From a virus: a DNA stretch of 43,502 nt. The notes under the pieces are model-generated. The model saw only the letters and a list, made by a program, of their open reading frames with translations, was not told the DNA's origin and searched no databases. Shown in pieces: positions 12,456 through 29,049 of the stretch. The stretch covers positions 1 through 43,502 of the IMG/VR virus record IMGVR_UViG_3300001750_000002; one strand, written 5' to 3'. The position numbers were made by a program, and so were the translations under genes. Within the stretch, counting starts at the first letter, position 1. The number at the start of each line of letters is the position of its first letter.

Positions 12456-12476
12456 AGTACTGTTCCTTGAAGTTGC

Positions 12477-14459: not shown

Positions 14460-14543
14460 CGGTTTCTCTTGCCTCTTGAGTTTTGTCCCCGACTTCCGCG
14501 CGGTCGCCGGCACGCCCTGTCGGACGTCGTGTTCTAAATGTTT

Positions 14544-14750: not shown

Positions 14751-14777
14751 AACATTCTCCGTATGCGTTTGAGTACT

Positions 14778-15230: not shown

Positions 15231-15281
15231 GTTCGTGTCTCCTGTTGTGTTACCTTTTATATAGGCTTTACGAGGCACTTG

Positions 15282-15422
15282 TCAAGACCCTTTTGGAGCG
15301 AGTATGCATAACCCTATTGCGACACCGGCCCAGGTAGCGGCCACGGCGATCTCACCTTGGAGCAGACATCCAATAGCGGCTAGATAAAGCATCCCAAGCG
15401 CTAACTGGACAGAAGCGCTCAT
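15282..15422 (-). CDS. possible small membrane protein (46 aa)
   Basis: ATG 15422 overlaps the upstream stop (ATGA). MSASVQLALGMLYLAAIGCLLQGEIAVAATWAGVAIGLCILAPKGS has two hydrophobic helices. Confidence 0.35.
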   Translation of the reverse strand: MSASVQLALGMLYLAAIGCLLQGEIAVAATWAGVAIGLCILAPKGS

Positions 15423-15799
15423 TCGGCGGCCTTTCCGAAATCGGGGTGCTTGTTTTTCATGTGTGCCGCCAGCTGTTTGAAGGTCCGGTTGCAGCACGGA
15501 CACACGCCGGCCTTGCTGCGGTTTCTCAGCTTCGTAACCTGTCCGTGCGCAGCGGCCTTCTCCCGCTTCAAGCGGATTATGTCGTCATCCATCTGTGCCA
15601 TAAGCTGTTTCAGTCGGTCGCGCTCCTGCCGAATGGCGTCGGCGCGCTTCTTCTCTTCACCGGTTCTGAAACCGCGGCTATGGCCGTTCGGACAAGTCCA
15701 ATAGCCGCCCTCTTCGACTGCGTTGTCGTACATCGCTTTAGGGATGGCGTGCTCGACGCCGCACGTACCGCACTGAATACGGGTAAGGGCAATGGACAT
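15419..15799 (-). CDS. zinc-finger protein with central coiled coil
   Basis: N-terminal CGTCG...CPNGH and C-terminal CPCCNRTFKQLAAHMKNKH (C2H2-like). The start overlaps the stop of the polymerase N-fragment (TGATG; an alternative GTG lies at 15802). Confidence 0.6.
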   Translation of the reverse strand: MSIALTRIQCGTCGVEHAIPKAMYDNAVEEGGYWTCPNGHSRGFRTGEEKKRADAIRQERDRLKQLMAQMDDDIIRLKREKAAAHGQVTKLRNRSKAGVCPCCNRTFKQLAAHMKNKHPDFGKAAE

Positions 15800-17004
15800 C
15801 ACGTAACCTCCAATTCATTGATCATCTCGATCGCTTCGGCCTCGTGCTCGCCGAGCGATTTGCGCGGCAGGTTGTGCGTCTGCACGCCTTTCGACGAATA
15901 GCGTCCGGTTTGCATGGCGCCGTTGAACACGTATTGCCCGCACAGCCGGCCGGCCGGATCGACCTGGTCGAGCATCTTGGCGAATTTCTTCGGGCTCGAC
16001 GACGCGCCGAACTGGCGCAGCTCGAGCAAGGTCGCGACCGCGATCTCGTCGTCGGTCAGACCGTCGTTGGTTTCCTCGAGCGCGTCATAGTAGGCGAGCA
16101 GCGCTTCGACCCGGGGCCGTTCGGCCGAGAGCTTGGCCGCAACGACCTCGTTCTCGTCGTCTTCGTCATACCGCGACACGAGCATGTCGCGCGCTTCGGC
16201 CGATCCGACATTATCGTAAAGCCATTCAGCAATCTTGACGTGCTGCATGATCGTCTTGAGCGCACCACCCGTGAGTCCGGGCAACATGGCATTCGTGCGC
16301 GTCCGATCGGCCTCGGCGATTTGCGCGGCGCGGCGCGCGAAGTCGACGTCGACCGCGATACCGCGGTCATTGATCCGTTCCGATGCCCAGTACTCGGCCC
16401 ATTCCGACGCCGGCAACGGCCGTGTGGCCTTCCATATGTCGCGCAAGAGCTCGGTGTCGCGCACGCCGTAGCCGATATATTCCTGCCACTCAGCGGGTGC
16501 CTCATCGGGCTGGGGGCCCTCAGGAGAAGCAAAGAGCTTCATCAGGCCCTTGCCGCGCTTGTCCTTGCCACCGAGCCCCAGGACCGTCCCGGCGTCCTCC
16601 AGACCCCCCGGCAGGTTCGACGCGGCGCCTTGCGCCATGGCATCGAGCGTCATTTCCGGCGTGAGTTCGGGAAAAGTGGGCTGGCTGTTCCAAATCTGCC
16701 GGTCGAAACCCATGTTCCAAGCGACGAACCACGCCTCACCGGCGGCGGCGCGCTTGTGGAATTGGCGCACTCGCGGGTTCAGATGCTTCCATTCGACATC
16801 GTAGTGACCGAACCGTGCGGCATAGGTCGCATCGACCGGTTCATCGCCGATCGTGTAGGTCCATATGACGGCCTCGGCGGTCGGCGCATAGGCATAGGCG
16901 CCGCACTTGGTTACGTCGTCGTAAGGCGGCAGCGTGCCGGGTAGCGGCCGCGTCTCGCTGTCGAGGAAGCAATAATCGTTAATGTCGTCTGAGAGATAGG
17001 TCAT
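15799..17004 (-). CDS. family-A DNA polymerase, N-terminal fragment (3'-5' exonuclease + thumb)
   Basis: ATG 17004 (MTYLSDDINDY...) is preceded by GGAAGG; the track's 17109 start is a GTG. ExoI CFLDSET, ExoII WNMGFD, ExoIII YGVRD, then GAMQTGRYSSKGVQTHNLPR (equivalent to TGRLSS..PNLQNIP of Pol I). Stops after ...AIEMINELEVT, before motif A. Confidence 0.85.
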   Translation of the reverse strand: MTYLSDDINDYCFLDSETRPLPGTLPPYDDVTKCGAYAYAPTAEAVIWTYTIGDEPVDATYAARFGHYDVEWKHLNPRVRQFHKRAAAGEAWFVAWNMGFDRQIWNSQPTFPELTPEMTLDAMAQGAASNLPGGLEDAGTVLGLGGKDKRGKGLMKLFASPEGPQPDEAPAEWQEYIGYGVRDTELLRDIWKATRPLPASEWAEYWASERINDRGIAVDVDFARRAAQIAEADRTRTNAMLPGLTGGALKTIMQHVKIAEWLYDNVGSAEARDMLVSRYDEDDENEVVAAKLSAERPRVEALLAYYDALEETNDGLTDDEIAVATLLELRQFGASSSPKKFAKMLDQVDPAGRLCGQYVFNGAMQTGRYSSKGVQTHNLPRKSLGEHEAEAIEMINELEVT

Positions 17005-17130
17005 GACGCGCGCCTTCCGATGCGAGGAGGCGGGGTCGACACCGCTTTGCCTGCCGAACAGACTGCTGGTATCGACCCCGTCGAAGTCCGGTATCGGCTT
17101 AGGGACCACCGAACTTCTAAGCAGCCGCTC

Positions 17131-17913
17131 CTACGCGGCGGGACGCCGACGATGGCGACGGACCGGGGTGGCGTCACCAGTCGTCGTTTTCTCCGGCGCG
17201 GCCTTCTGAGCGGGACTGGGGGCAGTCTCTTCGCTCTCGGGCTCGACCGGCGGCTTTTCCACCGGCGCAGGCTCGGTCGCCTGTTCCATGGCCTCGCTGG
17301 CATCTTCGGCGAGCGGAGCCCATTTCTTGATCAGAAAGACCGGGTTGTAGGTCTTCCCGTATTTCGGGTGCTGATAGTCGTCGTTCTGCAATGCGACCAA
17401 CGGGATCGGATTGCCCGGATCCTTGTCGAGCTGCGACATGACGGCACCGATCAGGTTCTTGACCGCGGCAGTGCCACCGAAACTGGTCGTGTTGTAGAGC
17501 GTCTGCACGCCGGTGTCCTCACCGCTCATACACTGCAGAGGAAAGCTGTATTGCTCCCGCCAGTCGCACGTATTCCCGTCATCATCGTGATAGACGGGCA
17601 GCGTTGCGCGCTCCGGGAGCGGCTGAGACGATGACACCATGACATCGCCTTTCTTCTCGTTTTTCTTCTTGTCGTAATTGGTCCAACAACAAAAACCGTG
17701 CTGCAGCGACATGATGTTGATCGCCCACAATGAGCCGTCCTGCACGTCGACATTGTCGGCGCCATAGACCCACATGCCATCGGTCTGCATGCGCATGAAT
17801 GGGTCCGTGTTCGACGACGGCATCGTCTTGGTGACGTTCGCCAGGCCTTGCTTGAGGCCTGACAGCGCCGCGACAGCGCCGCCGGCAGCTTGTGTCTGCA
17901 CTTCGTTTGACAT
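17131..17913 (-). CDS. replication-module protein, possibly ssDNA-binding (DUF2815-like position); function uncertain
   Basis: 260 aa with an AGGAAA RBS. Sits between the Cas4-like nuclease and the polymerase, as SSB-like genes do in nuclease/SSB/PolA/primase modules. Has a Pro/Glu-rich C-terminal linker and a basic end (RRHRRRPAA). Confidence 0.55.
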   Translation of the reverse strand: MSNEVQTQAAGGAVAALSGLKQGLANVTKTMPSSNTDPFMRMQTDGMWVYGADNVDVQDGSLWAINIMSLQHGFCCWTNYDKKKNEKKGDVMVSSSQPLPERATLPVYHDDDGNTCDWREQYSFPLQCMSGEDTGVQTLYNTTSFGGTAAVKNLIGAVMSQLDKDPGNPIPLVALQNDDYQHPKYGKTYNPVFLIKKWAPLAEDASEAMEQATEPAPVEKPPVEPESEETAPSPAQKAAPEKTTTGDATPVRRHRRRPAA

Positions 17914-18092
17914 AGTTCGGTTTCCTATTTCGGTTACAGGTTAATGCGGCAGGTTGGACGTTACCCCAACTAGGCCCTACGCTCCCGAACGCATGGGTGA
18001 TGAATTTGGAGTTCACCACTACCCTTTATTTTGCAGCCAGGCTTCCCATTCGGTCCACCTCATGTGTCTACTTTCCACATCGCTGCCGCAGT

Positions 18093-18194
18093 ATGGCGCG
18101 GCTAAGGTCTATCCGCGCCATGAGCCCGAAGGCTTCGCCGGTTCCTCTTAGGGGAGGTTCACCCGGGCCGGCACCCGGGGGCCTTGCAACGGCC
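18093..18194 (-). other. cluster of five consecutive stem-loops in a ~290-bp non-coding gap of the leftward operon
   Basis: ATGGCGCGG-11 nt-CCGCGCCAT (18093-18121; 9 bp perfect). AGCC-CGAA-GGCT (18123-18134; a UUCG loop on the transcribed strand). CCTC-6 nt-GAGG (18144-18157). CCCGGG-CCGGCA-CCCGGG (18162-18179). GGCC-7 nt-GGCC (18180-18194). Confidence 0.4.
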
Positions 18195-18206
18195 GCTAAA
18201 CCGTCG

Positions 18207-18383
18207 CTAAGAGGGTAGTTTTTTCGTCGGTGACGAATGTATCGAGCACAACGTCGACCATGTTTCATGAGTACACAAACTCTCAGGCGTGACCAGAACG
18301 CGTGTCGCTGTTCCGTCCAGGAAACTCTCATAAGAAATGAATTTCCCGCACTCATCGCATTTGTTCCACGTTTGCTGGGTCAT
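18207..18383 (-). CDS. possible small Cys-rich protein (58 aa)
   Basis: Hand-read. ATG 18383 is preceded by GGGAGA. Sequence MTQQTWNKCDECGKFISYESFLDGTATRVLVTPESLCTHETWSTLCSIHSSPTKKLPS, stop TAG. Third-position GC is only about 54%. Confidence 0.35.
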   Translation of the reverse strand: MTQQTWNKCDECGKFISYESFLDGTATRVLVTPESLCTHETWSTLCSIHSSPTKKLPS

Positions 18384-18404
18384 GTCTCTATCTCCCGTAT
18401 CTAT

Positions 18405-18572
18405 CTAGTACCCAAGATGTTCGCGCGCCTGCTCGATCGACCAACCCGTCACGTCGATCATGTCGAACCCGTAAACGCCGTCGAGCATGTAGTCGGCCTT
18501 GGCCCAGACACGGCCGACGCGGACGGTGATTTCAACGGAGTGGTTTTCGAGGTAGGAGATAAGGGCTTTCAT
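18405..18572 (-). CDS. hypothetical protein (55 aa)
   Basis: Hand-read. ATG 18572 is preceded by ACAGGAAACA. Sequence MKALISYLENHSVEITVRVGRVWAKADYMLDGVYGFDMIDVTGWSIEQAREHLGY. Confidence 0.45.
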   Translation of the reverse strand: MKALISYLENHSVEITVRVGRVWAKADYMLDGVYGFDMIDVTGWSIEQAREHLGY

Positions 18573-18655
18573 GATACTGTTTCCTGTTTCCGATCTCTTT
18601 TACTGTACTCTTTATATAGTCCTTATCGAGTTACTTTGCAAGAGGCTTATGCGGT

Positions 18656-19912
18656 TTATTCGGCGGCCGCTTCTGCCAGCTTCTCTGCGAGCTCCTGCAC
18701 TTCCGCACCCGGCGTATAGACCGGCGCCTTAGAACCGTCACGTACGAGCTTAGTGCCGGTCACTCGGCGCTCGACATACTTCTCGGGGATTTCCTTGAGC
18801 CGGCCCTTGCGGGCTTTCAGGATCTTGTCGACAGATGCCGGCGTGATCAACTTGCGCGGCGCCGCGGCGTCGTATTTCATGCGCATGGACGTGCGCAGCC
18901 ATTTCGTGGTCGCTTCCTCGTCGATCCAGGCGCGGTTCGACAGCGACTGCGTGAGATACCAGCCAGGCACCGAACCAGCCTGGTTGTACTCCAGATCGTG
19001 CGCCAGCTTGTGCGCAGCGTTGCTCAGCTCTTTGAGATCGTCCAGCAGATCGATGATCTGAGCCAGTCGCTCACCGCTTAACAGATCGGAGCCATCAGGG
19101 GGTGCCGTGTAAGCGGTTTCTATGTCGTATCGCGCGTCCGGCAAATCATCCAAGAGCGCGCCATAGGCCGGACACAGTGGTTTGCCCTTGCAGTAACGGC
19201 ACGCGGGGCCCTTGGCGAATGTCGGCGCGTCGGAGCCGATCGCCTCGGAATATTTCGCAACCAGCCGCATGCGGAACGCCTCGAGCGCGCCGGCTGTGGT
19301 TGACCAGCGTTTGAGCACCGGATCGGGCTGCGGCTGCACGATAATGATCTCGACCGGCCAGTCGTCGCCCTCGCCGAACATGTCGGGGCGTGTGTGCTGC
19401 GCCGCGCGGCCGTAATAGAGGCCTTGTGCGTTCTCGACCGGATCGACTTCGTTGAAACCGAATTTCCAGTCGAGAATGACGGTGCGCTGATCGGTTCGGC
19501 CGATCAGGTCGGACGTGCCGAAACTGTCGGGGATGCCGGGCATCTCGACCTGTGTCTCAACAAGAAAGCTGAGACCGCCTTCGTGTTCACACAGATCGCA
19601 GAAATTATCGAACGCCTCCAGCGCCGGCGCGATAGTGTCGCGGTAATCATCGTACGATATGACGCGCCCATAGAATTCTTGACCGATCACAACTTCAGGA
19701 TCTTCAGGGTCATAGTTCACGAGCTCGGCCATCGCCTCGTGCAGCGCCGTGCCACGGTCGGCGGCTTCGTTGCTCTCTTCCGGCGCGTTCGGCATGGCGG
19801 CCTTCAGATCGCGCAACAGGTTGTACGATCCCGGGCATTGGATGATCTGTGCGGCGCTTGAGCCGCCAACCGTAGTCGAGTGGGCGGCGGGCGTGGCGGT
19901 GCGTTCGTTCAT
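18656..19912 (-). CDS. PD-(D/E)XK nuclease with Cas4-like four-Cys cluster (DUF2800-like)
   Basis: N-terminal GGSSAAQIIQCPGSYNL, catalytic-type SDLIGRT...VILDWKFG, and C-terminal CRYCKGKPLCPAY (C-x2-C-x5-C, plus the N-terminal Cys). 418 aa. Confidence 0.8.
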   Translation of the reverse strand: MNERTATPAAHSTTVGGSSAAQIIQCPGSYNLLRDLKAAMPNAPEESNEAADRGTALHEAMAELVNYDPEDPEVVIGQEFYGRVISYDDYRDTIAPALEAFDNFCDLCEHEGGLSFLVETQVEMPGIPDSFGTSDLIGRTDQRTVILDWKFGFNEVDPVENAQGLYYGRAAQHTRPDMFGEGDDWPVEIIIVQPQPDPVLKRWSTTAGALEAFRMRLVAKYSEAIGSDAPTFAKGPACRYCKGKPLCPAYGALLDDLPDARYDIETAYTAPPDGSDLLSGERLAQIIDLLDDLKELSNAAHKLAHDLEYNQAGSVPGWYLTQSLSNRAWIDEEATTKWLRTSMRMKYDAAAPRKLITPASVDKILKARKGRLKEIPEKYVERRVTGTKLVRDGSKAPVYTPGAEVQELAEKLAEAAAE

Positions 19913-19940
19913 GTCTAAGTCTCCCTGTTACGATTTAGTT

Positions 19941-20156
19941 TTACGGGTTAAGGTAATAGCCTGTGGCCTGACGACCCGCCGCCTTGTCATCGTCGCTGTC
20001 CTCGTCCACGATTTCAGCGTTTTCGATAATGAAAACGACAAGATTTTCCAGAGCTTCGGCAACCTCATAAACGTCGATCTGGCTGCCCGGTGTATTATCG
20101 TGAAAAGACCGCGTCATCCACGTCAACTCTTCGACCTGTCGCTTTGTGAGTTTCAT
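19941..20156 (-). CDS. hypothetical acidic protein
   Basis: 71 aa with an AGGGAA RBS. Acidic run EIVDEDSDDDK. Confidence 0.55.
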   Translation of the reverse strand: MKLTKRQVEELTWMTRSFHDNTPGSQIDVYEVAEALENLVVFIIENAEIVDEDSDDDKAAGRQATGYYLNP

Positions 20157-20179
20157 GTCTCGGTTTCCCTGTTCGGTTC

Positions 20180-20392
20180 TTAGCTATCGTATCTGTCCGC
20201 CTCCGGCGCACGGTGATCGGGCACGTACGTGTGAATGAGCGTCTCGACCAGCTCCGACATGGTCACGCCGGTGTAGCGCGATGCCGCGCGCAGCTTATCG
20301 TGAGCCTCGGTCGACAAGGCCACGTTGAACCGTTTCGGCTTGTCCGCATGATGCGTTTTCATTTTGTCCAGATCGAGCATGGCCTTCGACAT
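20180..20392 (-). CDS. ribbon-helix-helix (CopG/Arc-like) DNA-binding protein; first gene of the leftward arm
   Basis: KRFNVALSTEAHDKLRAASRYTGVTMSELVETLI fits a beta-strand/helix/helix RHH fold pattern. GAGGA RBS. Lies next to the divergent promoter region. Confidence 0.7.
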   Translation of the reverse strand: MSKAMLDLDKMKTHHADKPKRFNVALSTEAHDKLRAASRYTGVTMSELVETLIHTYVPDHRAPEADRYDS

Positions 20393-20420
20393 TGCGTATC
20401 GTCCTCGCAGTGACTAGAAT
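20392..20420 (+). promoter_or_regulatory. candidate sigma70-type promoter for the rightward arm
   Basis: TTGCGT (20392-20397), 17 nt, TAGAAT (20415-20420). AGGAGA/AAGGG RBS and ATG 20447 lie downstream. Confidence 0.35.
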
Positions 20421-20436
20421 GTGTCGCGTAATAGGA

Positions 20437-20465
20437 GATATAAGGGATGACTCTCGAATTGTCAA
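20437..20465 (-). promoter_or_regulatory. candidate sigma70-type promoter for the leftward arm
   Basis: On the minus strand: TTGACA (20465-20460), exactly 17 nt, TATATC (20442-20437). The -35 lies inside the first codons of the VRR-NUC gene. It crosses the rightward promoter. Confidence 0.4.
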
Positions 20466-20740
20466 TAGAGGACTATCTCATAGCACGCATAAAGACGCTA
20501 GGCGGTACCGCTAAAAAAGTCACTTACAAAGGTTGTAGAGGCGCACCAGACCGCTTAGTTATACTTCCAGGTGGTCGCATCGTATTCGTTGAACTAAAGC
20601 GGCCTAAAGGTGGCCGCTTGAGCGAAGGGCAGCGCGTTGAGATAAGACTACTCAGCGGCTTAGGTGCCGAGGTTCATGTGTTAAGAACTCGAGAGGAGGT
20701 TGACGATGTGTTCGGACTGGATGAAAAAATTCAAGTCTAA
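20447..20740 (+). CDS. VRR-NUC domain nuclease
   Basis: GAPDRLVILPGGRIVFVELKRPKGGRLSEGQRVEIRLLSGLGAEVHV shows a PD...ExK core and matches the VRR-NUC pattern. 97 aa. Confidence 0.8.
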   Translation: MTLELSIEDYLIARIKTLGGTAKKVTYKGCRGAPDRLVILPGGRIVFVELKRPKGGRLSEGQRVEIRLLSGLGAEVHVLRTREEVDDVFGLDEKIQV

Positions 20741-21152
20741 TATCAACTTCGACGGACCGAGTGACTGTTGGCTGTGGACTGGAACCAAAGACCGCGACGG
20801 TTACGGCAAATTCCATGCCCCTAACGGCACAGGAGGCGCGCACCGCGCGGCCTTTGAGTTGTGGGAAGGGCCAATCCCAAAGGGCCTACATATCGACCAT
20901 CTATGCAGAGTGCCTAACTGTGTCAATCCTGCGCATATGGAGCCTGTCACTCCCGCAGAGAACTGTCGGCGCGGGTATCACGCTACTAAAACTCACTGTA
21001 AGCACGGCCATAAGTACACAGCCGATAACCTGCAGCGTAACAAGGCCGGTATACGCATGTGTAAAACTTGTAGCAGAGAACGTGCCAGGGCCTGGCATAA
21101 AAAGGATAAGCTCGAACGACAGCGCAGAGAACAAGAAAAGTACGGGCCATGA
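20706..21152 (+). CDS. HNH homing endonuclease (HNH_3-type)
   Basis: ATG 20706 follows GAGAGGAGG (20691-20699); the track start at 20700 is TTG. Reads SDCWLWTGTKDRDGYGKFHAPNGTGGAHRAAFELWEGPIPKGLHIDHLCRVPNCVNPAHMEPVTPAENCRRG. Its RBS and first 35 nt lie inside the VRR-NUC gene. Confidence 0.8.
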   Translation: MCSDWMKKFKSNINFDGPSDCWLWTGTKDRDGYGKFHAPNGTGGAHRAAFELWEGPIPKGLHIDHLCRVPNCVNPAHMEPVTPAENCRRGYHATKTHCKHGHKYTADNLQRNKAGIRMCKTCSRERARAWHKKDKLERQRREQEKYGP

Positions 21153-21352
21153 CCGGTTGGAAATTCGACGCGCAAAAGCTTGTGGCCGATCTCGAGGCGG
21201 CTGGCCACCGCACGTCCGTCAAGGCCGCCGGCAATACGGTCTATCTTGCCCAAGTCGCGACCGGTCTGCGCACTCTAGGCATGGGTGAGTTCCTGGCAAT
21301 GAGCTGGCTGGCCGGTTGGGCGCCGGCACGATATATCATAGAGGTAAAGTGA
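21149..21352 (+). CDS. hypothetical protein
   Basis: 67 aa. ATGA overlap upstream and TGATG overlap downstream. Confidence 0.5.
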   Translation: MTGWKFDAQKLVADLEAAGHRTSVKAAGNTVYLAQVATGLRTLGMGEFLAMSWLAGWAPARYIIEVK

Positions 21353-21624
21353 TGCAAATATGGAAATTCTTTGTCCAATCGAACTGTGAAATAGATATGC
21401 CTGCGGACGCTGAAATCGTAGAGGTCGGTGCTCAAAATAACGACATATGTATATGGGCGGTCGTCGATCCATGGGCCCATACGGTGACGAGACAGTTTGA
21501 CGTTATCGGTACCGGACACGAGTTTCGCGATGTACCTCAGCACACTCTTAAATACTTAGGGACAGCACATTTAGAAACTGACGGATGGGTGTTCCACGTA
21601 TTCGAAAAGGTAGCATCCGCATAG
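21352..21624 (+). CDS. conserved phage hypothetical protein (DUF7352-like)
   Basis: ATG 21352 is in frame with track ORF 21316-21624. MQIWKFFVQSNCEIDMPADAEIVEVGAQNNDICIWAVVDP...FDVIGTGHEF...YLGTAHLETDGWVFHVFE resembles a widespread small phage family as I recall it. Confidence 0.55.
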   Translation: MQIWKFFVQSNCEIDMPADAEIVEVGAQNNDICIWAVVDPWAHTVTRQFDVIGTGHEFRDVPQHTLKYLGTAHLETDGWVFHVFEKVASA

Positions 21625-21752
21625 AACACGGCCGCCGGATCCGATCAAGGCATCCAGCGACTGTTTCAGTTCAGGCTTGGGGCGCCCCTAAGCATCCTTA
21701 CGGGTAGCTCCAACCCTCACGCAAAGGGCTGTCGAAAAAGACGCCCCAATTC

Positions 21753-22430
21753 CTAAAAACGGAACCGGAAACCGATCTCCGCGTTGTGGCTGTCGACATG
21801 GCCAAGGCTAGCGCCGGCGACCGTCACGTCTTCATACCGTCGAAAACGGTAGCCGACCGACAGCGCCGTGGTCTCAGTCAGATCGATCGTGACACCGGCC
21901 ATGCCCTGCCAAGCGAATGCCGTCTCGCTGATCGGACCAACGGCAATCAAGGTCATGCCGGCGCCGGCGCCGATATAGGGCGTGAGATCGGTCGAGTTCT
22001 CAAGGTCGATGAACGCATTGGCGAACACGCCGGGCGTCCACACGTTGATGTCGGCCCCGCCGATGTCCAGCGCATTGTAGCCGACCGTCGCCTCGATCTC
22101 AGCGCGGAACATGCCGAGGTCGTAGCCAACTTGTGCGGCGCCCAGACCGCCGATCTCGTCTCGAACACCACCGCCGATATCGACATCCGCCAACCACTGC
22201 GCACCGCCACCGACACCGACGTAGAAGCCGCTGTCGCTCTTAGCCGTTTCAAGTCGCGGAACCTCCCAATCAGCCGCGTTAGCGGAATATGACATTGCAG
22301 TGATCGCACCGACGACAAACAGGCCGGTGAGCAAAGTCAGAGCGAAAGTGCCGATCACTGTAAGGCCGGTGACCAGAAATGAGGAGGCGTCACGGGGCCG
22401 AAGGCCCGGTTTTTCGAACATTTTGCGCAT
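21753..22430 (-). CDS. outer-membrane beta-barrel protein (OMP_b-brl / Omp25-OmpX-Lom-like), moron
   Basis: ATG 22430 (MRKMFEK...) follows AGGAG; the track start at 22469 is in frame. Long signal-like N-terminus ending ...AMSYSANA|ADW. Alternating strands FYVGVGGG, AQVGYDL, FRAEIEATVGY, GVFANAFIDL, PYIGAGAGMT, AWQGMAGVTIDL, LSVGYRFRR. C-terminal ...AEIGFRFRF. Opposite strand to all its neighbours. Confidence 0.8.
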   Translation of the reverse strand: MRKMFEKPGLRPRDASSFLVTGLTVIGTFALTLLTGLFVVGAITAMSYSANAADWEVPRLETAKSDSGFYVGVGGGAQWLADVDIGGGVRDEIGGLGAAQVGYDLGMFRAEIEATVGYNALDIGGADINVWTPGVFANAFIDLENSTDLTPYIGAGAGMTLIAVGPISETAFAWQGMAGVTIDLTETTALSVGYRFRRYEDVTVAGASLGHVDSHNAEIGFRFRF

Positions 22431-22477
22431 TGATGATCTCCTGATATTGAAAAACGCATGGTACTTCACATAGCACC

Positions 22478-22506
22478 TTGCCAGACACTTTACATATCAC
22501 TATGTT
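22478..22506 (+). promoter_or_regulatory. candidate promoter for 22535 and downstream genes
   Basis: TTGCCA (22478-22483), 17 nt, TATGTT (22501-22506). Confidence 0.3.
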
Positions 22507-22519
22507 GAGGAGAATGCAA
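22491..22519 (-). promoter_or_regulatory. candidate promoter for the OMP moron
   Basis: On the minus strand: TTGCAT (22519-22514), 17 nt, TATGTA (22496-22491). Interleaved with the plus-strand candidate. Confidence 0.3.
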
Positions 22520-22534
22520 TAAGGGAACTAAACA

Positions 22535-22900
22535 ATGACATGGTCTTTCGACAACCCAGAATTCATTATCACCGGTGACGGCGTCGAACGGCTCACAGCC
22601 ACGATGCAGTTGGTTCCGAACTTTAAGGCTAAGGGGTGGTGCATCAGTAAAAACCGGTTTGTCATGTTTTGGGCGGAGCATCAAGAGATGACGCCGTTTC
22701 CTGTTCTCATGGGGCCAAAGGATTGCGCAGCGATCGTTATCCATTGGTTAAAGGACGCGGACTACGGCTCCATCCCGGACATCGATGGCGATGTGATAGC
22801 GGGTTGGCGCTGTTATACTGAAAGCTGGGGGCACATCGAAAATTTCGGCTACCAAGCGTTTCTGGCAGTCCATCCGTACTACACGCTATACGGTAAATAG
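22535..22900 (+). CDS. hypothetical protein
   Basis: 121 aa, RBS AAGGGA. No motifs recognised. GC is visibly lower than in the structural genes. Confidence 0.55.
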   Translation: MTWSFDNPEFIITGDGVERLTATMQLVPNFKAKGWCISKNRFVMFWAEHQEMTPFPVLMGPKDCAAIVIHWLKDADYGSIPDIDGDVIAGWRCYTESWGHIENFGYQAFLAVHPYYTLYGK

Positions 22901-22922
22901 AAAACAACAAGGGAGCTAGACA

Positions 22923-23369
22923 ATGGCACGCACGACACTGCAACGCTGCAATGAAATCGATAAACGCGTAAAGAAAGCCTCTGACATACTCATAGGCGCT
23001 AGACTGGGCAAGGAATGGAGTGTTCTTTTTGAGCTGTGTAGCGCGTTGCACGAAGTCACGGCCGTTCTACGGTCGGGCGGTGAACCGAAAGCTTACAACA
23101 AAATCGAGCCGCACGAATTTGCCGCTGCTATAGGGCTGGCCAAAGCGTTTGGCGTCTGCTGGAAATGCGGCGAACAAGAGGAGCATCCTCTACACCAGAC
23201 CGTAACGTCGGGCTTCGTGCGCGTCTATACAACCGAGCGCCAGAACACTGTGCTTTTAGTCAACGGAACGGTCCTTGCCGAGGGCGATGCGGCCAAATTC
23301 GGACGTAAGTTTGCCAAGATCGCGACACGGTTGTCCGAGGAACTGGGCCTGGATTTGGTGAGAGGCTGA
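22923..23369 (+). CDS. hypothetical protein
   Basis: 148 aa, RBS AAGGGAG. A CWKCG motif is the only feature. Confidence 0.55.
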   Translation: MARTTLQRCNEIDKRVKKASDILIGARLGKEWSVLFELCSALHEVTAVLRSGGEPKAYNKIEPHEFAAAIGLAKAFGVCWKCGEQEEHPLHQTVTSGFVRVYTTERQNTVLLVNGTVLAEGDAAKFGRKFAKIATRLSEELGLDLVRG

Positions 23370-23372
23370 ACA

Positions 23373-23789
23373 ATGCAGCGACGTAAATTCTTGGCTTTCA
23401 TGGCCGCCGGCCCGGTTGCAGCAAAAGCTGCGGCGGACAAAGTTGCTTTGGGGCATATGGGGATCAGCACCACAGGTCTCGCCGATCCGATCGATCAACC
23501 CTGTACGAGCGGCAGCGAGACAGAAGACGGCATTAAAACGCTGGATTGGCTACGTGCACACGGCATCCCTGAGTGGCGTATGGAGGATATCGAGAAAGAA
23601 GCTAAATTTGTGCGTGCGCTAGATCCTGATCTAGCCTGCAATAAATCGATGTCTCTTGCGGCAAAAATCTACAGCCAGCGCGACCGCCAGCTCGCGCGAC
23701 TGATCGACGAAGAAACCAGTTTGCGCATGCGCAACAGAGCGCGCGACGCTTGGCTTAAGAAAGCTGGCATGAGCTGGTGGTCGTGGTGA
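23373..23789 (+). CDS. hypothetical protein with twin-arginine (Tat) signal peptide
   Basis: MQRRKFLAFMAAGPVAAKAAADK has the RRxFL motif, a short h-region and an AxA-type site (AAA). 138 aa. Confidence 0.6.
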   Translation: MQRRKFLAFMAAGPVAAKAAADKVALGHMGISTTGLADPIDQPCTSGSETEDGIKTLDWLRAHGIPEWRMEDIEKEAKFVRALDPDLACNKSMSLAAKIYSQRDRQLARLIDEETSLRMRNRARDAWLKKAGMSWWSW

Positions 23790-24679
23790 TCTCCTACTAC
23801 AACGAAAATGACCCGTTCGCGGCGCAATGGCTGCGCAATCTCATAGCAGAAAACCTCATTCCGGAAGGTGACGTGGATGACCGATCGATCGAAGACGTGC
23901 AGCCCGGCGATCTCGTCGGATACCGGCAGTGCCATTTCTTCGCCGGCATCGCCGGGTGGCCGCTCGCTCTCGCGCTCGCCGGATGGCCCGAAGATAGAGA
24001 AGTATGGACCGGATCCTGTCCCTGTCAGCCGCTTTCGGGCGCCGGACAAAAACGGGGCGCTCAGGACAAGCGTCACCTTTGGCCAGTGTTTTGCGGTCTC
24101 ATTGCGGAGCGCCGTCCTGCAGCGGTCTTTGGAGAACAGGTTGCGAGCCCGCTTGGACGTGAATGGCTCGCCGGAGTACGTCTTGACCTGGAAGCATTGG
24201 GATATGCCTGCGGGGCGGCCGATCTGTGCGCTGCGGGCGTCGCGGCGCCGCACCTCAGGCAACGGTTGTGGTTTGGAGCTAAAAACATGGCCGACACCAA
24301 TGGCCGGAACGCCAGCTCAGAACGGCTACAACGGAGCAGGCAACACGGACAGCTTACGAAAAACAATTGCGTTGTTAAAGGATTGGGCGACGCCGAGAGC
24401 GAGGGACTGCGAGAACAACGGAGTGAGTATCGCCCGAGCGGCGAAAGGTGTCGCGGACTCGTTGGATTTGCAGCGCAAATTGGTGTGCCTCAATGGAATG
24501 GACCGACCGTCGCCGTTGAGTGCTCGGATGGGTGGCGCCGCGTATCCTCTCAACCCGACGCATTTCCTATGGCTCATGGGGTACAGCAAAGAGGTGGCAA
24601 GTTGCGCGCCTACGGCAACGCGATCTGCCCGCCGCTCGCCAAAGAGTTCATAGAGGCGTTCATGGAGTGTTCAACATGA
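23777..24679 (+). CDS. DNA (cytosine-5) methyltransferase (see finding on the second overlapping frame 23868-24653)
   Basis: FFAGIAGW (motif I-like), GSCPCQPLSGAG (PCQ, motif IV), RHLWP, FGEQV (ENV-like, motif VI), APHLRQRLWF (motif VIII), LRAYGNAICPPLAKEFI (motif X). The start is uncertain: GTG at 23777, 23783 or 23786, the last forming a GTGA overlap with the upstream stop. Confidence 0.75.
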   Translation: MVVVISYYNENDPFAAQWLRNLIAENLIPEGDVDDRSIEDVQPGDLVGYRQCHFFAGIAGWPLALALAGWPEDREVWTGSCPCQPLSGAGQKRGAQDKRHLWPVFCGLIAERRPAAVFGEQVASPLGREWLAGVRLDLEALGYACGAADLCAAGVAAPHLRQRLWFGAKNMADTNGRNASSERLQRSRQHGQLTKNNCVVKGLGDAESEGLREQRSEYRPSGERCRGLVGFAAQIGVPQWNGPTVAVECSDGWRRVSSQPDAFPMAHGVQQRGGKLRAYGNAICPPLAKEFIEAFMECST

Positions 24680-25116
24680 AGACGTGCACGGGTTGCGGCA
24701 CAACAAAAACAGTCGATCAGTACCACGCCGACAAGAGGCGTAAAGACGGTAAACTCGCGCGCTGTAAAGATTGCAGACGTATCGAAACGAACGCATACCG
24801 AAAAAGGGTTGGATACGACCGCATCAGATATCGACGTACCGCGCCGCAAGAACGCGAGCGGCATCTGATCAGAAAATACGGCGTCACTCAAGCCGATTAC
24901 GATCACATGCTCTCAGCCCAAGGGGGCGGCTGCGCCATATGTAGCCGAAAGCAAAATCACGCTCTGGACGTTGACCACTGTCACGCTACCGGTAATGTTC
25001 GAGGGTTGCTGTGCACAAACTGCAACCGTCTTCTAGGGCACGCTCACGATGACATTGCGCGCCTGATCGCCGCAGCGCGCTATCTTATTTCATCTCGTAA
25101 GGAGACGCGAAAATGA
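24676..25116 (+). CDS. endonuclease VII-like (T4 gp49-family) nuclease, probable free-standing homing endonuclease
   Basis: ATG 24676 (ATGA overlap with the MTase stop) is in frame with track ORF 24520-25116. N-terminal Zn ribbon CTGCG...CKDC. Core GGCAICSRKQNHALDVDHCHATGNVRGLLCTNCNRLLG. Confidence 0.8.
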   Translation: MKTCTGCGTTKTVDQYHADKRRKDGKLARCKDCRRIETNAYRKRVGYDRIRYRRTAPQERERHLIRKYGVTQADYDHMLSAQGGGCAICSRKQNHALDVDHCHATGNVRGLLCTNCNRLLGHAHDDIARLIAAARYLISSRKETRK

Positions 25117-26087
25117 CCGCGCTCGACAACGCTTTTCTCGATCGCTTTGCCGAGTTCGGCCCGGTGTCGAGAAACCTCAGCTGGCTGATCCGCCCCGCGC
25201 TGGTCGCGGGGCCCGGAAGAACATTAATTTGGGGGGATTTCAGCTCTATTGAGGCGCGCGTGCTGCCGTGGCTCGCGGCATCACCCGGCGGCGAGAAGGT
25301 GCTGGACGTGTTCCGCACAAACGACGCTGACCCGTCGCTGCCCGATATCTATGAGATCGAAGCCGGCAACATCTACAAATGCGATCCGAAGGAAATCGAC
25401 AAGGGACCGCGCCAGATCGGCAAGGTCGCCGTGCTGTCGCTCGGCTTCGGCGGCTCGGTCGGCGCGCTCGGTGCCATGGCGACCGGGTACGGTATCTATC
25501 TCGAGGACGATCTGAAACACGAGATCGTCGAGACCTGGCGCCAGTCGAACCCGTGGGCCCGGACATTCTGGGATGCCCTGTGGGAAGCCGCTCTGAACGC
25601 CTTGGAGAGCCCTGGAGCAGTCTTCCCAGCTGGGCGCGTCGCGTTCGTCTACGACTCCTCCTACATCCGCGGTACGCTGTTCTGCGCGCTGCCGTGCGGC
25701 CGGGTGCTGTCGTACCCGAAAATCCGGTGGGAGAAACGCGAGATCGAAGACAAGAAGACCGGCAAGACCGAGACGCGCACGCAGTTGGTTTACACCAAGG
25801 GTTACGGCCGCGCGGCGGCGTGGTTTGGCAAGTTCGCCGAGAACGTGACGCAGGCGACCGCCGGCTCGATCCTGCGCCGGACACTCGTACGGTTAAAACG
25901 GTTTGACGATGTCGTGGCGCACACGCATGACGAGATCGTACGCGAGACTGAAGATGATCCGGTCTGGATTGCGGCAGCTAAAAGCGCTCTGCGCGCTGGT
26001 ATGGAAGCAAACGACGATTGGGATGCCGGGCTGCCGCTCAAGGCGGAAGTCCTGGAGAACTGGTACTATACACAAAGCATTAAATAG
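25113..26087 (+). CDS. family-A DNA polymerase, C-terminal fragment (palm/fingers)
   Basis: Own ATG with an ATGA overlap to the endonuclease VII-like gene. Motif A LIWGDFSSIEARVL, motif B RQIGKVAVLSLGFGGSVGAL, motif C VVAHTHDEIVRE. 324 aa. Confidence 0.9.
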   Translation: MTALDNAFLDRFAEFGPVSRNLSWLIRPALVAGPGRTLIWGDFSSIEARVLPWLAASPGGEKVLDVFRTNDADPSLPDIYEIEAGNIYKCDPKEIDKGPRQIGKVAVLSLGFGGSVGALGAMATGYGIYLEDDLKHEIVETWRQSNPWARTFWDALWEAALNALESPGAVFPAGRVAFVYDSSYIRGTLFCALPCGRVLSYPKIRWEKREIEDKKTGKTETRTQLVYTKGYGRAAAWFGKFAENVTQATAGSILRRTLVRLKRFDDVVAHTHDEIVRETEDDPVWIAAAKSALRAGMEANDDWDAGLPLKAEVLENWYYTQSIK

Positions 26088-26101
26088 TTTACCAATTAAG
26101 G

Positions 26102-26581
26102 ATGCCTAGCTTAAAACAAGAATACCGCAGCACGTATGAATGTTGGGCCAACATGAAAACACGCTGCAATAACCCTAACTACGAAGCCTTCGAACGCTAC
26201 GGCGGACGTGGCATACGGGTCTGTGAGCGCTGGAACGCCAGCTTTGCGGCGTTCTTGGGAGACATGGGTCCGAAACCAGACGGTTTAACGATCGAGCGCG
26301 TCGATAACGACGGTAACTACACACCGGACAACTGTGAATGGGCCACACGGATAGCCCAAGCACGTAACCGGCGCTCGACACTGTACGCAACTGTCAACGG
26401 TGAAACGCTGTGTGCAAAAGACTGGATCGCTCGTCTCGACATATCGCCGAACGCTTTTTACACTCGCGCGCGCCGTATCGGCTGTCAGGCAGCGGTTGAG
26501 CACTATCAAGCGAAACCGAAATGGGCGCACTCACCCAGCCCGAACGAAAAAGGGATCGACCCTGGCAGCCGATCCCTTTAA
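26102..26581 (+). CDS. HNH-like endonuclease-family protein
   Basis: GRGIRVCERW...GLTIERVDNDGNYTPDNCEWATRIAQARNRR resembles the (I/V)(D/E)RIDNxxxYxPxNCRWAT..Q..N pattern of phage HNH-like proteins as I recall it. Confidence 0.55.
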   Translation: MPSLKQEYRSTYECWANMKTRCNNPNYEAFERYGGRGIRVCERWNASFAAFLGDMGPKPDGLTIERVDNDGNYTPDNCEWATRIAQARNRRSTLYATVNGETLCAKDWIARLDISPNAFYTRARRIGCQAAVEHYQAKPKWAHSPSPNEKGIDPGSRSL

Positions 26582-26646
26582 CACTGGACATCCTACCGCC
26601 TGAAAGCGGCTACAATTCCGACGGTTCCCACAGAAGGAAATTGCAC

Positions 26647-29049
26647 ATGACAGATAGCGCGCAACGGCTTGAAATGCAAGTCGTCACCGAACTGCGCCTG
26701 AAGCTCCTGGCCAACGGCTACACCCCTCTTCCGAACTACGACAAGCGGAATTTCCTGAAAGGCTGGCCGGCCGTCGAGGTCGACGAAGCCGCGATCGCGG
26801 CATGGGGGCGCAAGCATAAGTCGTTCGCGGCGACCGGCTTGCGCCTACAGGATGGGCTGGCGGTGATCGACATAGATATAGATGACACTATTGCTCAACG
26901 GCTGCTGGATGCATCCGGTAGTGTGCTTTATCGCTACGGGGCTGGCCATAAGGAAGCGCGTTTTATGCGTGCGTCCGAACTCTTCGGCCGGATCCATTCC
27001 CGGCGCTGGGTGCCTCCGAGCGAACCTTTGGACGGGCCGGCGCAAGGGATTGAGATCTTCGGCGGCCAATCGCCCCGACAGTTCGGCGCGTTCGGCGCGC
27101 ACACACGGCTCGACAACGGAGAGATACCGGTTGCCTACAACTGGGAAGCCGGCGATAGCCCGGAAACCGTCCACCTCGACGATCTGCCTCTGTTATCTAA
27201 ACAGGACTTTTTCGCTTTCATAGATAAAGCAGAGGCCATGCTGGAGGCCGAAGGCTGGACGCCAGTCTTGTGCAGCAAGATCGGCGAAAACGCGGCCGAG
27301 CGCGTTCATGACCTCGTCGGCGGCATGCTGTTCGAACTTAATACAGACGAGAACGTCGGGCTCGACGAGCTCCGAGACCGCGCCGGCACATCGGATCTCC
27401 GATGCGCCGCGTCGTTCATCGAGCAAGGTGCTGACAACCGAACGCGGTGCATCGTCGGGCAGACGCATGACGGTCAGCTCACTGTGTGGGATAGCGCGAC
27501 CGATGTGACGCATCTCGAAGTTACGCCGACGATCGAGGACATGATCGCCGAAATCGGCGTGTCGTTCGCCGCTTCGGCGCCGTCCGAGAGAACGCCAGTT
27601 GATGATGGCGACGATCTGCAGAGTGCCGCGACCAAGCTCGTGTGGCTCTATGCCTTCTGTCCCACGGCTGCCACCAAAAACGTGGTGCCGATCGACACGA
27701 CAGATATCGGGGCGGGCATGGCGTTATCGAACATGCGGATCAAATACCGTCCCTGGGGCGAGACCGTGCCGGCGAAGACGCCGCAAGGCAATGACACGAC
27801 CAAATTCCGCACACCGACCGATCTATGGGAGCTGTCGCGCGACCGGCTGTCCGTCGGCGGTCTGCGCATGCGGCCCGATATGCCGACGCCGATATATGAG
27901 GAGGACGGCGTGACGTGGGTGAACACATATCGACCGGTCGCGCATCCGGCCGGTGGCGATGTGTCGATCGGCATCGAGTTCATATCGCAGCTCGTTCCTG
28001 ACGATGTGGAACGGCACTGGTTCATGTCGTGGCTCGCCTGCAAGCTCCGGCGGCCGTGTGAGCCAGGGCCGGGCGTGATCATGGTCGCCGAGCAGTACGG
28101 CACCGGCCGCGCCACGTTCGCCGACCTGCTCGGGCGGCTGTTCGGCCGGCGCTACGTCAAGGCGATCAAGTTCGGCATGCTGACCGGGCAGGTCGGGCAG
28201 TCGCAATATAACGACTGGAGCGCGGACGCGTTGATCGTCGTGGTCAACGAGAGCTCCGAAGATCCGATCGGCGCCGGATCGTTCCGAACCAAATTGAACG
28301 CCTATGAGCATCTGAAAGAGCTGGTCGACCCTCGGCAATCCGAACATTTGATCGTGCGCAAAGGCGAGCCCAACTATATGGCGCCACGATACACGTCCTA
28401 TATCATCGCCACAAACCACCGGGACGCGCTGGTGCTGCCGGCCGACGACCGACGCCTGGCGGTGCTCACGAACGGCTCACAGCGCTCTCCGGCTTACTGG
28501 GAGGGTCTCAACGTCTGGATGGACGATCCAGCCAATGTCGGCGCGTTCGCGCGGTATCTGGACGTCTATGATGTGGGTGAGTACACGCCGCACCGACACG
28601 TGCCGATGTTCAAGGCGAAACACGACATGGCCTATTTGAGCGTGTCGGACATCGATCAGGCTGTGACCGATGCGATCGATGGGATGAAATCGGAACTGAC
28701 GACGCTCGACGCGATCGTGTCGTCGGCGCAGGCTCACTTGGTGCAGGGTGACTACGCCGCGCCGGCAAGCGGCGGGGCTCTCAGGAGAACCGCGCGACGA
28801 CGCCTATACCAGCTCCACCGATCGGAAGTGAAAGACGGGCGTATACGCATGCCGGACGGTCGCGCGCATCACGCTTGTGCAACGTCGCGAACGGCCGCGG
28901 TCAAATGGGCCAAGGCGTCATTTGAGGCTATAAAAACCGAGTTGGAAAAAGGCGCTGACGAGCCGAGATATCTCGCCCCAAAATCGAACGTTATCCCCAT
29001 CCCAAAAAGGGATGGGAATCGGGATGGGAAAAACGACGAGCAAAACTAA
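26647..29049 (+). CDS. bifunctional primase-polymerase / SF3 (D5/VirE-like) helicase
   Basis: ATG 26647 (MTDSAQRLEM...) follows GAAGGA and is in frame with track ORF 26521-29049. Prim-pol N-domain ...LKGWPAVEVD...GLRLQDGLAVIDIDIDD. P-loop region GVIMVAEQYGTGRATFADLLGRLFG. Walker B-like ALIVVVNES. Motif C-like YIIATNH...DDRRLAVL. Confidence 0.8.
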   Translation: MTDSAQRLEMQVVTELRLKLLANGYTPLPNYDKRNFLKGWPAVEVDEAAIAAWGRKHKSFAATGLRLQDGLAVIDIDIDDTIAQRLLDASGSVLYRYGAGHKEARFMRASELFGRIHSRRWVPPSEPLDGPAQGIEIFGGQSPRQFGAFGAHTRLDNGEIPVAYNWEAGDSPETVHLDDLPLLSKQDFFAFIDKAEAMLEAEGWTPVLCSKIGENAAERVHDLVGGMLFELNTDENVGLDELRDRAGTSDLRCAASFIEQGADNRTRCIVGQTHDGQLTVWDSATDVTHLEVTPTIEDMIAEIGVSFAASAPSERTPVDDGDDLQSAATKLVWLYAFCPTAATKNVVPIDTTDIGAGMALSNMRIKYRPWGETVPAKTPQGNDTTKFRTPTDLWELSRDRLSVGGLRMRPDMPTPIYEEDGVTWVNTYRPVAHPAGGDVSIGIEFISQLVPDDVERHWFMSWLACKLRRPCEPGPGVIMVAEQYGTGRATFADLLGRLFGRRYVKAIKFGMLTGQVGQSQYNDWSADALIVVVNESSEDPIGAGSFRTKLNAYEHLKELVDPRQSEHLIVRKGEPNYMAPRYTSYIIATNHRDALVLPADDRRLAVLTNGSQRSPAYWEGLNVWMDDPANVGAFARYLDVYDVGEYTPHRHVPMFKAKHDMAYLSVSDIDQAVTDAIDGMKSELTTLDAIVSSAQAHLVQGDYAAPASGGALRRTARRRLYQLHRSEVKDGRIRMPDGRAHHACATSRTAAVKWAKASFEAIKTELEKGADEPRYLAPKSNVIPIPKRDGNRDGKNDEQN

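Follow-up and report, generated by a model that had tools for sequence, protein, structure and literature searches.

Introduction

Can a phage replicate its genome with a family-A DNA polymerase (PolA) whose two halves are encoded kilobases apart on opposite strands? The question is raised by IMG/VR virus record IMGVR_UViG_3300001750_000002, a stretch of virus DNA of 43,502 nucleotides (nt) that we analyzed at its full length and refer to as the window. Here the gene for the N-terminal half of the polymerase (PolN) lies on the minus strand and the gene for the C-terminal half (PolC) on the plus strand, with 8,109 nt between their start codons. A preliminary description, made without database searches, had proposed that the active enzyme is assembled from two polypeptides made from two divergent transcription units, without an intein, and had regarded the arrangement as apparently unique.

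From the sequences and the fold models, we consider it very likely that this phage encodes a two-subunit family-A DNA polymerase, whose subunits would associate to become active. The proposal of two polypeptides from divergent units, with no intein, is supported by the tiling of the halves on an intact homologue, the fold predicted for their fusion, the selection acting on them, the negative results for inteins and introns, and the recurrence of the layout in relatives. The N-subunit would supply the proofreading exonuclease, the thumb and motif 2, and the C-subunit would supply motif A, the fingers (motif B) and motif C; each would be translated from its own cistron, and non-covalent association would rebuild a Klenow-like enzyme. 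The ancestral gene may have been split inside a loop of a helical insertion of about 40 residues between motif 2 and motif A. Most descendants would have kept both cistrons on one strand, translationally coupled or with accessory genes between them, while in the lineage of the window a single inversion would have placed PolN in a leftward and PolC in a rightward operon, both leaving a 54-nt divergent region.

Two half-genes of one polymerase

The preliminary description had read three exonuclease motifs and a thumb-side motif, followed by a stop codon, in the minus-strand open reading frame (ORF), and motifs A, B and C in a plus-strand ORF with its own ATG. These are present in the translations. 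PolN carries CFLDSET (Exo I, DxE), WNMGFD (Exo II, NxxxFD) and YGVRD (Exo III, YxxxD), and residues D15, E17, F100, D101, Y179 and D183 are invariant in 46 homologues. PolC carries motif A (DxSxxE) as GDFSSIEAR, motif B (RxxxKxxxxxxxY/F-G) as RQIGKVAVLSLGFGG and motif C (HDE) as HTHDE, with D42, E47, R100, K104, H272, D273 and E274 invariant in 47 homologues. The further motifs quoted earlier (GAMQTGRYSSKGVQTHNLPR, IWGDFSSIEARVL, RQIGKVAVLSLGFGGS and AHTHDEIV) can all be found in the translations.

The C-half matches the Pfam family DNA_pol_A (PF00476) at 3.4e-9 (36.6 bits; cut-off 34.3) and, at 3.2e-44, phrog_10285, a 321-position family of stand-alone C-halves in PHROGs that is labelled ‘DNA polymerase’. 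A profile built from C-halves matches the Klenow, Taq and Bst polymerases at 1e-13 to 1e-7. The N-half matches phrog_17 (‘DNA polymerase’) at 1.8e-32; it has no Pfam match, neither it nor its profile has a sequence match in the PDB, and its PDB matches came from a fold search. Annotation pipelines give the N-half no name. A tblastn search matched both halves to Octadecabacter Antarctic BD virus 1 (BD1), at 7e-88 for the N-half and 1e-94 for the C-half. By motif, profile and fold, the two halves belong to the family-A DNA polymerases (Pol I/Klenow-like with a 3′-5′ exonuclease). Members of this family typically carry all domains on a single polypeptide; the window enzyme, encoded by two cistrons on opposite strands, is a split member.

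The longest ORF for PolN begins with a GTG at 17109 and encodes 436 amino acids (aa). Since homologue alignments begin only at about residue 33-36 of this ORF, and a GGAAGG Shine-Dalgarno sequence lies 8 nt before the ATG at 17004, this ATG is the likely start. PolC has an AAGGAG sequence 8 nt upstream of its ATG, which overlaps the stop codon of the upstream gene as ATGA. The endonuclease VII-like identity of that upstream gene and the presence of an HNH gene after PolC agree with the preliminary description (Table 1). The stop codon of PolN overlaps the start of an unrelated zinc-finger-like gene (GTGATG), so PolN ends as an ordinary operon cistron. PolN and PolC are therefore independent cistrons, each with its own Shine-Dalgarno sequence and ATG and each coupled to an unrelated neighbour gene.

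Both halves are under purifying selection. The ratio of nonsynonymous to synonymous substitution rates (dN/dS) is 0.109-0.165 for PolC (0.109 between the window and relative L004, 0.145 between the window and L005) and 0.146 for PolN (window against L006), similar to the 0.169 of the primase. No second DNA polymerase was found among the window ORFs covered by a non-exhaustive scan or among the called genes of L129, a second assembly of the same phage region described below.

Tiling, break point and predicted fold

We used the intact 748-aa polymerase of Nostoc phage Nsp-JY18 as the reference for tiling. Residues 4-395 of the N-half align to residues 8-421 of this protein, and residues 15-318 of the C-half align to residues 438-743. 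The tail of the N-half (...HNLPRKSLGEHEAEAIEMINELEVT, then the stop codon) and the head of the C-half (MTALDNAFLDRFAEFGPVSRNLSWLIRPA...) abut on, and align residue by residue with, the matching Nostoc phage stretch ...HNLTRAVVQTVDPTNLPPEELEIEAIETIAFSEDARATYDALKKRFGPVGRTLSRLIRPS..., and to within about 3 residues nothing is lost or duplicated between the two halves and the intact enzyme. The preliminary description had placed a clean break between the motif 2 equivalent and motif A, and had named a missing essential segment as the observation that would speak for decaying fragments; the alignment agrees with the clean break, and the tiling is complete. In Klenow, NLQNIPVR and IRQAF are separated by just 8 residues. 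In the present clade, the region between motif 2 and motif A contains about 40 extra residues, which form a helical insertion, and the cut lies in this extra stretch.

An AlphaFold model of an artificial fusion of the N- and C-halves, predicted as a single chain, is Klenow-like, with exonuclease, thumb, palm and fingers (mean predicted local distance difference test score, pLDDT, 92.1; predicted template modelling score, pTM, 0.91). Foldseek matched it to Klenow, Bst and M. smegmatis Pol1 with TM scores of 0.67-0.72 (E~1e-18), and G20c Pol I was also matched. The junction between residues 401 and 402 of the fused model falls in a loop (397-406) between helices 385-396 and 407-416, and the 10-residue block 401-410 has an average pLDDT of 77, against 89 and 93 in its flanks. 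The final strands of the N-half are part of the palm in this model. When the N-half was modelled alone (AlphaFold2), its pLDDT was 89 and its best Foldseek matches were family-A polymerases (DpoZ 7pbk, Pol I 8oo6, G20c 7r0k and T7). Its last ~60 residues have a pLDDT of 49-80 alone versus 83-95 in the fused model, which weakly hints, given that the alignments differ between the two models, that these residues could fold against the C-half. In the predicted structure, the break sits in a surface loop of the helical insertion, a spot that would be tolerant of chain breakage.

Layout in independent assemblies and diverged relatives

The European Nucleotide Archive (ENA) contig L129 (ERZ27237539, k141, 42,479 bp) is 100% identical to positions 15113-36087 of the window and covers both halves. 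A Logan contig (L130; SRR1313734) is identical to window positions 18880-30609 and a JGI contig (L011; Ga0209633_10000563) to positions 5799-17865, each covering one junction. The three assemblies come from different pipelines.

The same layout is found in diverged relatives. In L006, which shares 64% (PolN) and 67% (PolC) amino acid identity with the window, the halves are on opposite strands, 4.1 kb apart. They are also on opposite strands, 2.9 kb apart, in a more distant phage that was seen three times (L022/L024/L141; 41% and 49% amino acid identity). L005 (77% amino acid identity in PolC) has the same divergent layout around PolC on a contig that stops before PolN, and L004 (91% in PolC) shares the local context on a contig too short to include the N-half. 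A megablast search for close DNA relatives among cultured phages returned only a 54-nt methylase match.

Distribution of the split form

Relatives in IMG/VR were gathered by an alignment-based scan; single-protein scans of IMG/VR gave almost nothing. In a 5.8-billion-protein database, stand-alone halves (317-420 aa and 391-438 aa) make up nearly all of the 120 top-ranking relatives found for each half. In a representative library of 1.84 billion proteins, 519 clusters match the C-half at E<=1e-30, and the top 150 of these are a mixture of full-length proteins, stand-alone C-halves and intein-sized proteins. The split form is kept across hundreds of clusters, down to ~45% identity.

The preliminary description had called for a survey of related genomes for intact and same-strand split versions, and both were found. 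The polymerase is intact in 72 of the 93 genome and metagenome loci that show both halves, and the majority of IMG/VR loci below ~50% identity are intact. Same-strand splits occur in about 35 loci, with gaps that range from 6-24 nt to 2.9 kb. Among the surveyed loci, opposite-strand halves occur only in the lineages of the window, L006 and L022/L024/L141, with L005 sharing the layout around PolC. The apparent uniqueness thus held in part: the opposite-strand placement is rare, while the split itself is common in the clade and also present in BD1 (gp32/gp29). BD1 (MW805363), the one cultured relative, has its break at the identical residue position, and two small genes separate gp32 from gp29; the polymerase is not mentioned in the paper describing this phage (PMC9239159). 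Directly adjacent pairs (for example, L017 and L019) overlap as ATGA or TGATG in different frames with nothing between them, an arrangement that reads as classical translational coupling. Loci with enough flanking sequence nearly always contain both halves, and the exceptions (for example, L012, L018 and L026) are short of flank on at least one side. In a rough neighbour-joining tree, the window falls in an all-split clade and the BD1 group is placed beside the intact relative L033, a position that suggests more than one fission or a re-fusion.

We also observed other interruptions of these genes. Some loci of this polymerase family (L021, L030, L144, L150, L153 and L183) are split at a second position, near residue 276 of the N-half, into an N-terminal ORF of ~280-300 aa and a C-terminal ORF of ~470-500 aa. 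Intact members of the clade carry classical inteins in motif 2, with junctions of the form GVQ/CVTGEHEV...VTGN/THNL (P0249, P0260 and P0293) or GRF/CVSAD...HHN/SSRG (P0246). The intein sites of intact relatives correspond to fused positions 369/370 and 375/376, with others near motif B (~510) and at ~642, and the intein-bearing proteins are 900-1450 aa long. In L008, an ORF at 6190-8202 (P0195, 670 aa) is the N-half of a split relative with a ~250-aa insertion at the motif-2 intein site; this N-half appears to be both split and interrupted there. The C-half ORFs of L051 and L054 (685 and 672 aa) contain an in-frame segment similar to the HNH protein of the window (26102-26581); this points to either an HNH-containing intein or an endonuclease inserted in frame.

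Origin of the opposite-strand layout

We compared the gene order around the polymerase across relatives. In type A (L003, L007-L009, L014 and L054), SNF2 and VRR-NUC point leftward and are followed by rightward DUF2800, SSB-like, PolN, cargo, PolC and primase genes; the BD1 group has the type A core with the primase upstream. In type B (the window, L006 and L022, together with L005 and probably L018, in both of which PolN is off the contig), SNF2, PolN, SSB-like and DUF2800 genes point leftward, and VRR-NUC, cargo, PolC and primase genes point rightward. In type C (the Nostoc phage, L002, and L020), SNF2, SSB-like and DUF2800 genes point leftward, and VRR-NUC, an intact PolA and primase genes point rightward.

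By synteny, type A can be converted to type B by one inversion of the block formed by VRR-NUC and the divergent DUF2800, SSB-like and PolN genes, a direction (A to B) that we infer from the gene orders. The breakpoints would be the intergenic region between SNF2 and VRR-NUC and the existing gap between PolN and PolC. Since one breakpoint is intergenic and the other a pre-existing gap, no gene would have been damaged, and since that gap already separated PolN from PolC, the inversion would have come after the fission. A search around 15.8 kb and 25.1 kb found no inverted repeats. In relatives, the genes that lie between the halves encode SprT-like, C5 methylase, metallophosphatase, beta-solenoid or unknown proteins and are not enriched in endonucleases.

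Alternative explanations

The window is a metagenome-derived contig, and inverting 15799-25112 would set the halves head to tail, so the chance that an assembler broke and inverted a contiguous polA deserves consideration; the preliminary description had itself named such a misassembly as the finding that would undo its proposal. We regard this chance as negligible. Three differently made assemblies are 100% identical to the window (L129 across both halves, L130 and L011), the divergent layout recurs in diverged relatives from other samples (L005, L006 and L022/L024/L141), and each half has a proper stop codon, Shine-Dalgarno sequence and ATG, such that re-inversion would still not yield one ORF. 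It is very unlikely that the halves are decaying pseudogene fragments in a phage that uses a host or other polymerase. An N-half that lacks a Pfam match and goes unnamed by annotation pipelines would fit such decay, but dN/dS is 0.11-0.15 in both halves, the catalytic residues are invariant across 46-47 homologues, the split persists across hundreds of clusters to ~45% identity, confident complete folds are predicted, and no other polymerase was seen among the called genes of L129 or in the non-exhaustive scan of window ORFs. The products could alternatively act independently, as a free proofreading exonuclease or DNA-binding factor and a minimal polymerase, given that the halves are in different operons with translational coupling lost and that T7-like cyanophages of clade B encode exonuclease and polymerase as separate ORFs (PMC12695635). 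This is unlikely, because the cut is inside the polymerase domain rather than at the exonuclease/polymerase boundary and parts the thumb and motif 2 from motifs A-C of one catalytic domain; the last strands of the N-protein are also in the palm of the fused model, and both halves are found together in nearly every locus with enough flank.

Two further explanations would restore a single product or a single operon. Cyanobacterial DnaE halves, encoded on opposite strands, offer a precedent for joining after expression, and intact relatives of the window enzyme carry classical inteins nearby (P0249, P0260, P0293 and P0246). Joining by a split intein (protein trans-splicing) or by trans-spliced intron halves is nonetheless extremely unlikely here. 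The N-half ends within ~3 residues of the start of the C-half on the intact homologue, so that intein fragments would have no space; the N-junction lacks a C/S/A and the C-junction lacks an HN-C/S/T (the N-tail reads ...EMINELEVT before the stop codon and the C-head reads MTALDNAF...); and the known intein sites at 369/370 and 375/376 lie 25-31 residues upstream of the split. The absence of intein blocks, noted in the preliminary description, is thus borne out by junction residues that are wrong for an intein and by at most 3 spare residues on the intact homologue. An Rfam gathering scan of the whole window, which reaches those introns that are represented in Rfam, gave 0 matches and no group I or II intron, and intron halves do not fit, because both cistrons overlap neighbour genes. 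A programmed DNA inversion, in which 15799-25112 would flip during infection (Gin/Cin/Hin-like) and restore a contiguous gene or an adjacent operon, is highly improbable as well. Inverting exactly this segment would join the end of PolN to the start of PolC, and the block has evidently inverted in evolution; against this, neither 15.8 kb nor 25.1 kb has inverted repeats in its vicinity, the genes scanned in the region include no recombinase, all three assemblies show a single orientation, and the inversion would not fuse the ORFs, because PolN keeps its own stop codon.

We therefore return to a two-subunit enzyme as the preferred explanation. It is probable that the window encodes a natural, obligately heterodimeric family-A replicase that is cut inside its polymerase domain, with the insertion as docking element and two divergent operons as its source. 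Several points weigh against this explanation or parts of it. Subunit binding and DNA polymerization by the two proteins are inferences from their sequences, and the fold support comes from an artificial single-chain fusion rather than a two-chain prediction. A promoter scan returned 10 sites against 9.0±2.5 expected, which is not above chance; because of this, the transcription units are read from gene orientation, and co-regulation of the halves is conjectural. The neighbour-joining tree is too rough to fix the number or direction of splitting and inversion events. A homing-endonuclease origin of the split is not favoured by a scan of the gap cargo of relatives, which consists mostly of other genes; in the window itself, nuclease genes lie on both sides of PolC.

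Comparison with known split genes

Split phage polymerases are already established as a principle. The family-B polymerase of the chimallivirus PhiKZ is encoded by separate genes as DNAP-N (gp82) and DNAP-C (gp50), is split in a palm insertion, and forms a stable, active 1:1 complex without splicing (bioRxiv 2026, PMC13648687). The window enzyme is likewise a two-gene phage replicative polymerase that is split inside a lineage-specific palm insertion. It differs in being of family A, in carrying the thumb on the N-subunit rather than the C-subunit, and in the size of the insertion (~40 residues versus hundreds), and its complex is deduced here whereas that of PhiKZ is proven biochemically and structurally. 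Since PhiKZ is of family B, it is an analogue, and the window enzyme is not a member of the same group; like the PhiKZ enzyme, the window enzyme most likely works as a non-covalent two-subunit polymerase.

Within the clade, the same-strand split PolA of BD1 (gp32/gp29) and of metagenomic contigs has a split position within ~2 residues of that in the window, tails of the form ...AIEFINDITLQE (before the stop codon) and MSMYAGELKAFEELFGP..., and a shared module of DUF2800, SSB-like gene, SNF2, VRR-NUC and primase. Unlike in the window, the halves lie on one strand and are ATGA-coupled or separated by 0.3-2.9 kb of cargo. Genes in pieces are also known from T4-like phages, such as Aeh1 nrdA split by mobE, T4 topoisomerase 39/60, and gp43A/gp43B of Aeromonas phages 25 and 44RR (PMC2988022; Friedrich et al. 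2007, PMC1851037), of which gp43A and gp43B co-purify (PMC2988022). As in these cases, an essential replication gene of the window is found in two cistrons with nucleases at the junction (endonuclease VII-like upstream and HNH downstream of PolC), and, as in Aeh1 nrdA-mobE, two ORFs tile an uninterrupted homologue. The T4-like products reassemble into active enzyme. In those phages the pieces still lie next to each other on a single strand and were evidently produced by a homing endonuclease, whereas the pieces in the window are on opposite strands and the gap cargo of its relatives is mostly of other kinds.

Family-A phage polymerases in two ORFs have been described in T7-like cyanophages of clade B, with exonuclease and polymerase ORFs (PMC12695635, bioRxiv 10.1101/325100), and in the OM43 phages MEP401/402 (PMC10580990). 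The cyanophage split is at the exonuclease/polymerase domain boundary, unlike that in the window, and both cases concern other PolA lineages with same-strand halves. Jumbo phages have a minimal Pol III alpha that is split into distantly encoded proteins (PMC7824862). The PolB of Methanothermobacter is split without an intein (Kelman et al. 1999, discussed in PMC4104785) and resembles the window enzyme in having two subunits, but it is a cellular enzyme of family B. Cyanobacterial DnaE and Nanoarchaeum equitans PolB, like the Methanothermobacter enzyme, share with the window enzyme the placement of their halves at separate, non-adjacent loci; DnaE and the Nanoarchaeum PolB differ in being cellular enzymes of families C and B that are ligated by protein trans-splicing, which is excluded here. 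In the literature that we searched, we found no description of a family-A enzyme with its polymerase domain split at this site, and no account of the size of the clade that carries the cut or of opposite-strand halves in divergent operons.

Implications

The cut would represent a naturally validated split site inside a Pol I-type polymerase domain, which could be used in the engineering of split or complementing polymerases and could help to understand how palm, thumb and fingers assemble in trans. It also provides an example of a rearrangement that exploits an earlier gene fission, with gene pieces that can be moved to different operons without loss. If the heterodimer reading is true, the two halves of a PolA can be fully uncoupled genetically, and an entire clade of P22-like environmental phages, not described before, depends on such an enzyme for replication. 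This clade will be miscounted or dropped in PolA-based surveys of viral diversity and in automatic annotation, because its N-half is unnamed without a Pfam match and its C-half looks truncated. At 519 representative clusters (E<=1e-30), of which many are split, the clade affected is large.

Genomic context

The boundaries of the polymerase genes and of the surrounding features are summarized in Table 1.

Table 1. Polymerase half-genes and neighbouring features in the window
Feature	Position	Strand	Remarks
SNF2 helicase gene	12477..13856	-	phrog_62 2.4e-113; downstream of PolN; outer boundary of the inversion
Zinc-finger-like gene	15419..15802	-	127 aa; phrog_33336 7e-18; start overlaps PolN stop
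PolN (PolA N-subunit gene)	15799..17004	-	401 aa; coding 17004->15802, stop 15801-15799; 3′-5′ exonuclease domain (Exo I-III), thumb, first palm strands with motif 2 (QTGRYSS..HNLPR), first helix of the family-specific insertion
Block inverted relative to type A relatives	15799..20740		PolN, SSB-like, DUF2800, small genes, divergent intergenic region, VRR-NUC
Gene at the SSB (DUF2815-like) position	17131..17913	-	260 aa; phrog_9528 6.9e-16; directly upstream of PolN, same operon
DUF2800 / PD-(D/E)XK nuclease gene	18656..19912	-	PF10926 5.9e-31, PF12705 1.2e-10
Divergent intergenic region	20393..20446		54 nt; PolN operon leftward, PolC operon rightward; presumed bidirectional control region
VRR-NUC-type nuclease gene	20447..20740	+	phrog_93 1.3e-23, synteny; first gene of the rightward operon ending in PolC and primase
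Endonuclease VII-like gene	24520..25116	+	PF02945 4.4e-23, phrog_2633 8e-39; likely true start ATG 24676
PolC (PolA C-subunit gene)	25113..26087	+	324 aa; rest of insertion helices, palm motif A, fingers motif B, palm motif C
HNH endonuclease gene	26102..26581	+	phrog_3377 1.3e-44; no Pfam match; immediately downstream of PolC
Primase/helicase gene (DUF5906)	26521..29049	+	PF19263 4.1e-10, phrog_1156; other gene callers start at 26647

The SSB-like gene, a tentative label for its function, is next to PolN in all relatives by synteny. An equally short divergent spacer is found between the p70/DUF2800 and VRR-NUC genes in L005, L006, L008 and L009, and a comparison of the divergent intergenic region across relatives revealed no obvious shared sequence. 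At the position of the endonuclease VII-like gene, L004 and L005 carry unrelated ORFs of 73-76 aa; because it is absent from these closest relatives, the gene is considered variable cargo. Four HNH or endonuclease VII-type genes are found within 13 kb of the replication module, at 13856-14356 (-), 20700-21152 (+), 24520-25116 (+) and 26102-26581 (+). Two of them flank PolC, the set carried differs between relatives, and the four appear to be mobile cargo.

A C5 cytosine methylase gene (23777-24679, +) is present as a 300-aa ORF, and the ENA and Logan gene calls use another frame (258 aa). A frameshift was considered and rejected, as an intact homologue in L014 aligns throughout in the single 300-aa frame; the 258-aa call is probably wrong and the gene intact. 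An OMP_b-brl (PF13505) outer-membrane beta-barrel gene (21753-22469, -) runs against the direction of the rightward replication operon in which it lies; it has a terminator-like hairpin at 21770-21744 and 76% amino acid identity to its counterpart in L004. It resembles a moron and gives a hint that the host is Gram-negative, probably an alphaproteobacterium. Matches to genome bins are mostly to contigs of alphaproteobacterial metagenome-assembled genomes, and the host is uncertain because these matches reach <=56% only.

The structural module (29000-36500 and 1-11000) is P22-like, with an Sf6-type small terminase, TerL, P22 portal, scaffold, P22 coat, beta-helix tailspike and muramidase. The lengths of other assemblies (42,465 and 42,479 bp) make it probable that the window represents a podovirus genome of ~42.5-43.5 kb that is complete and circularly permuted.

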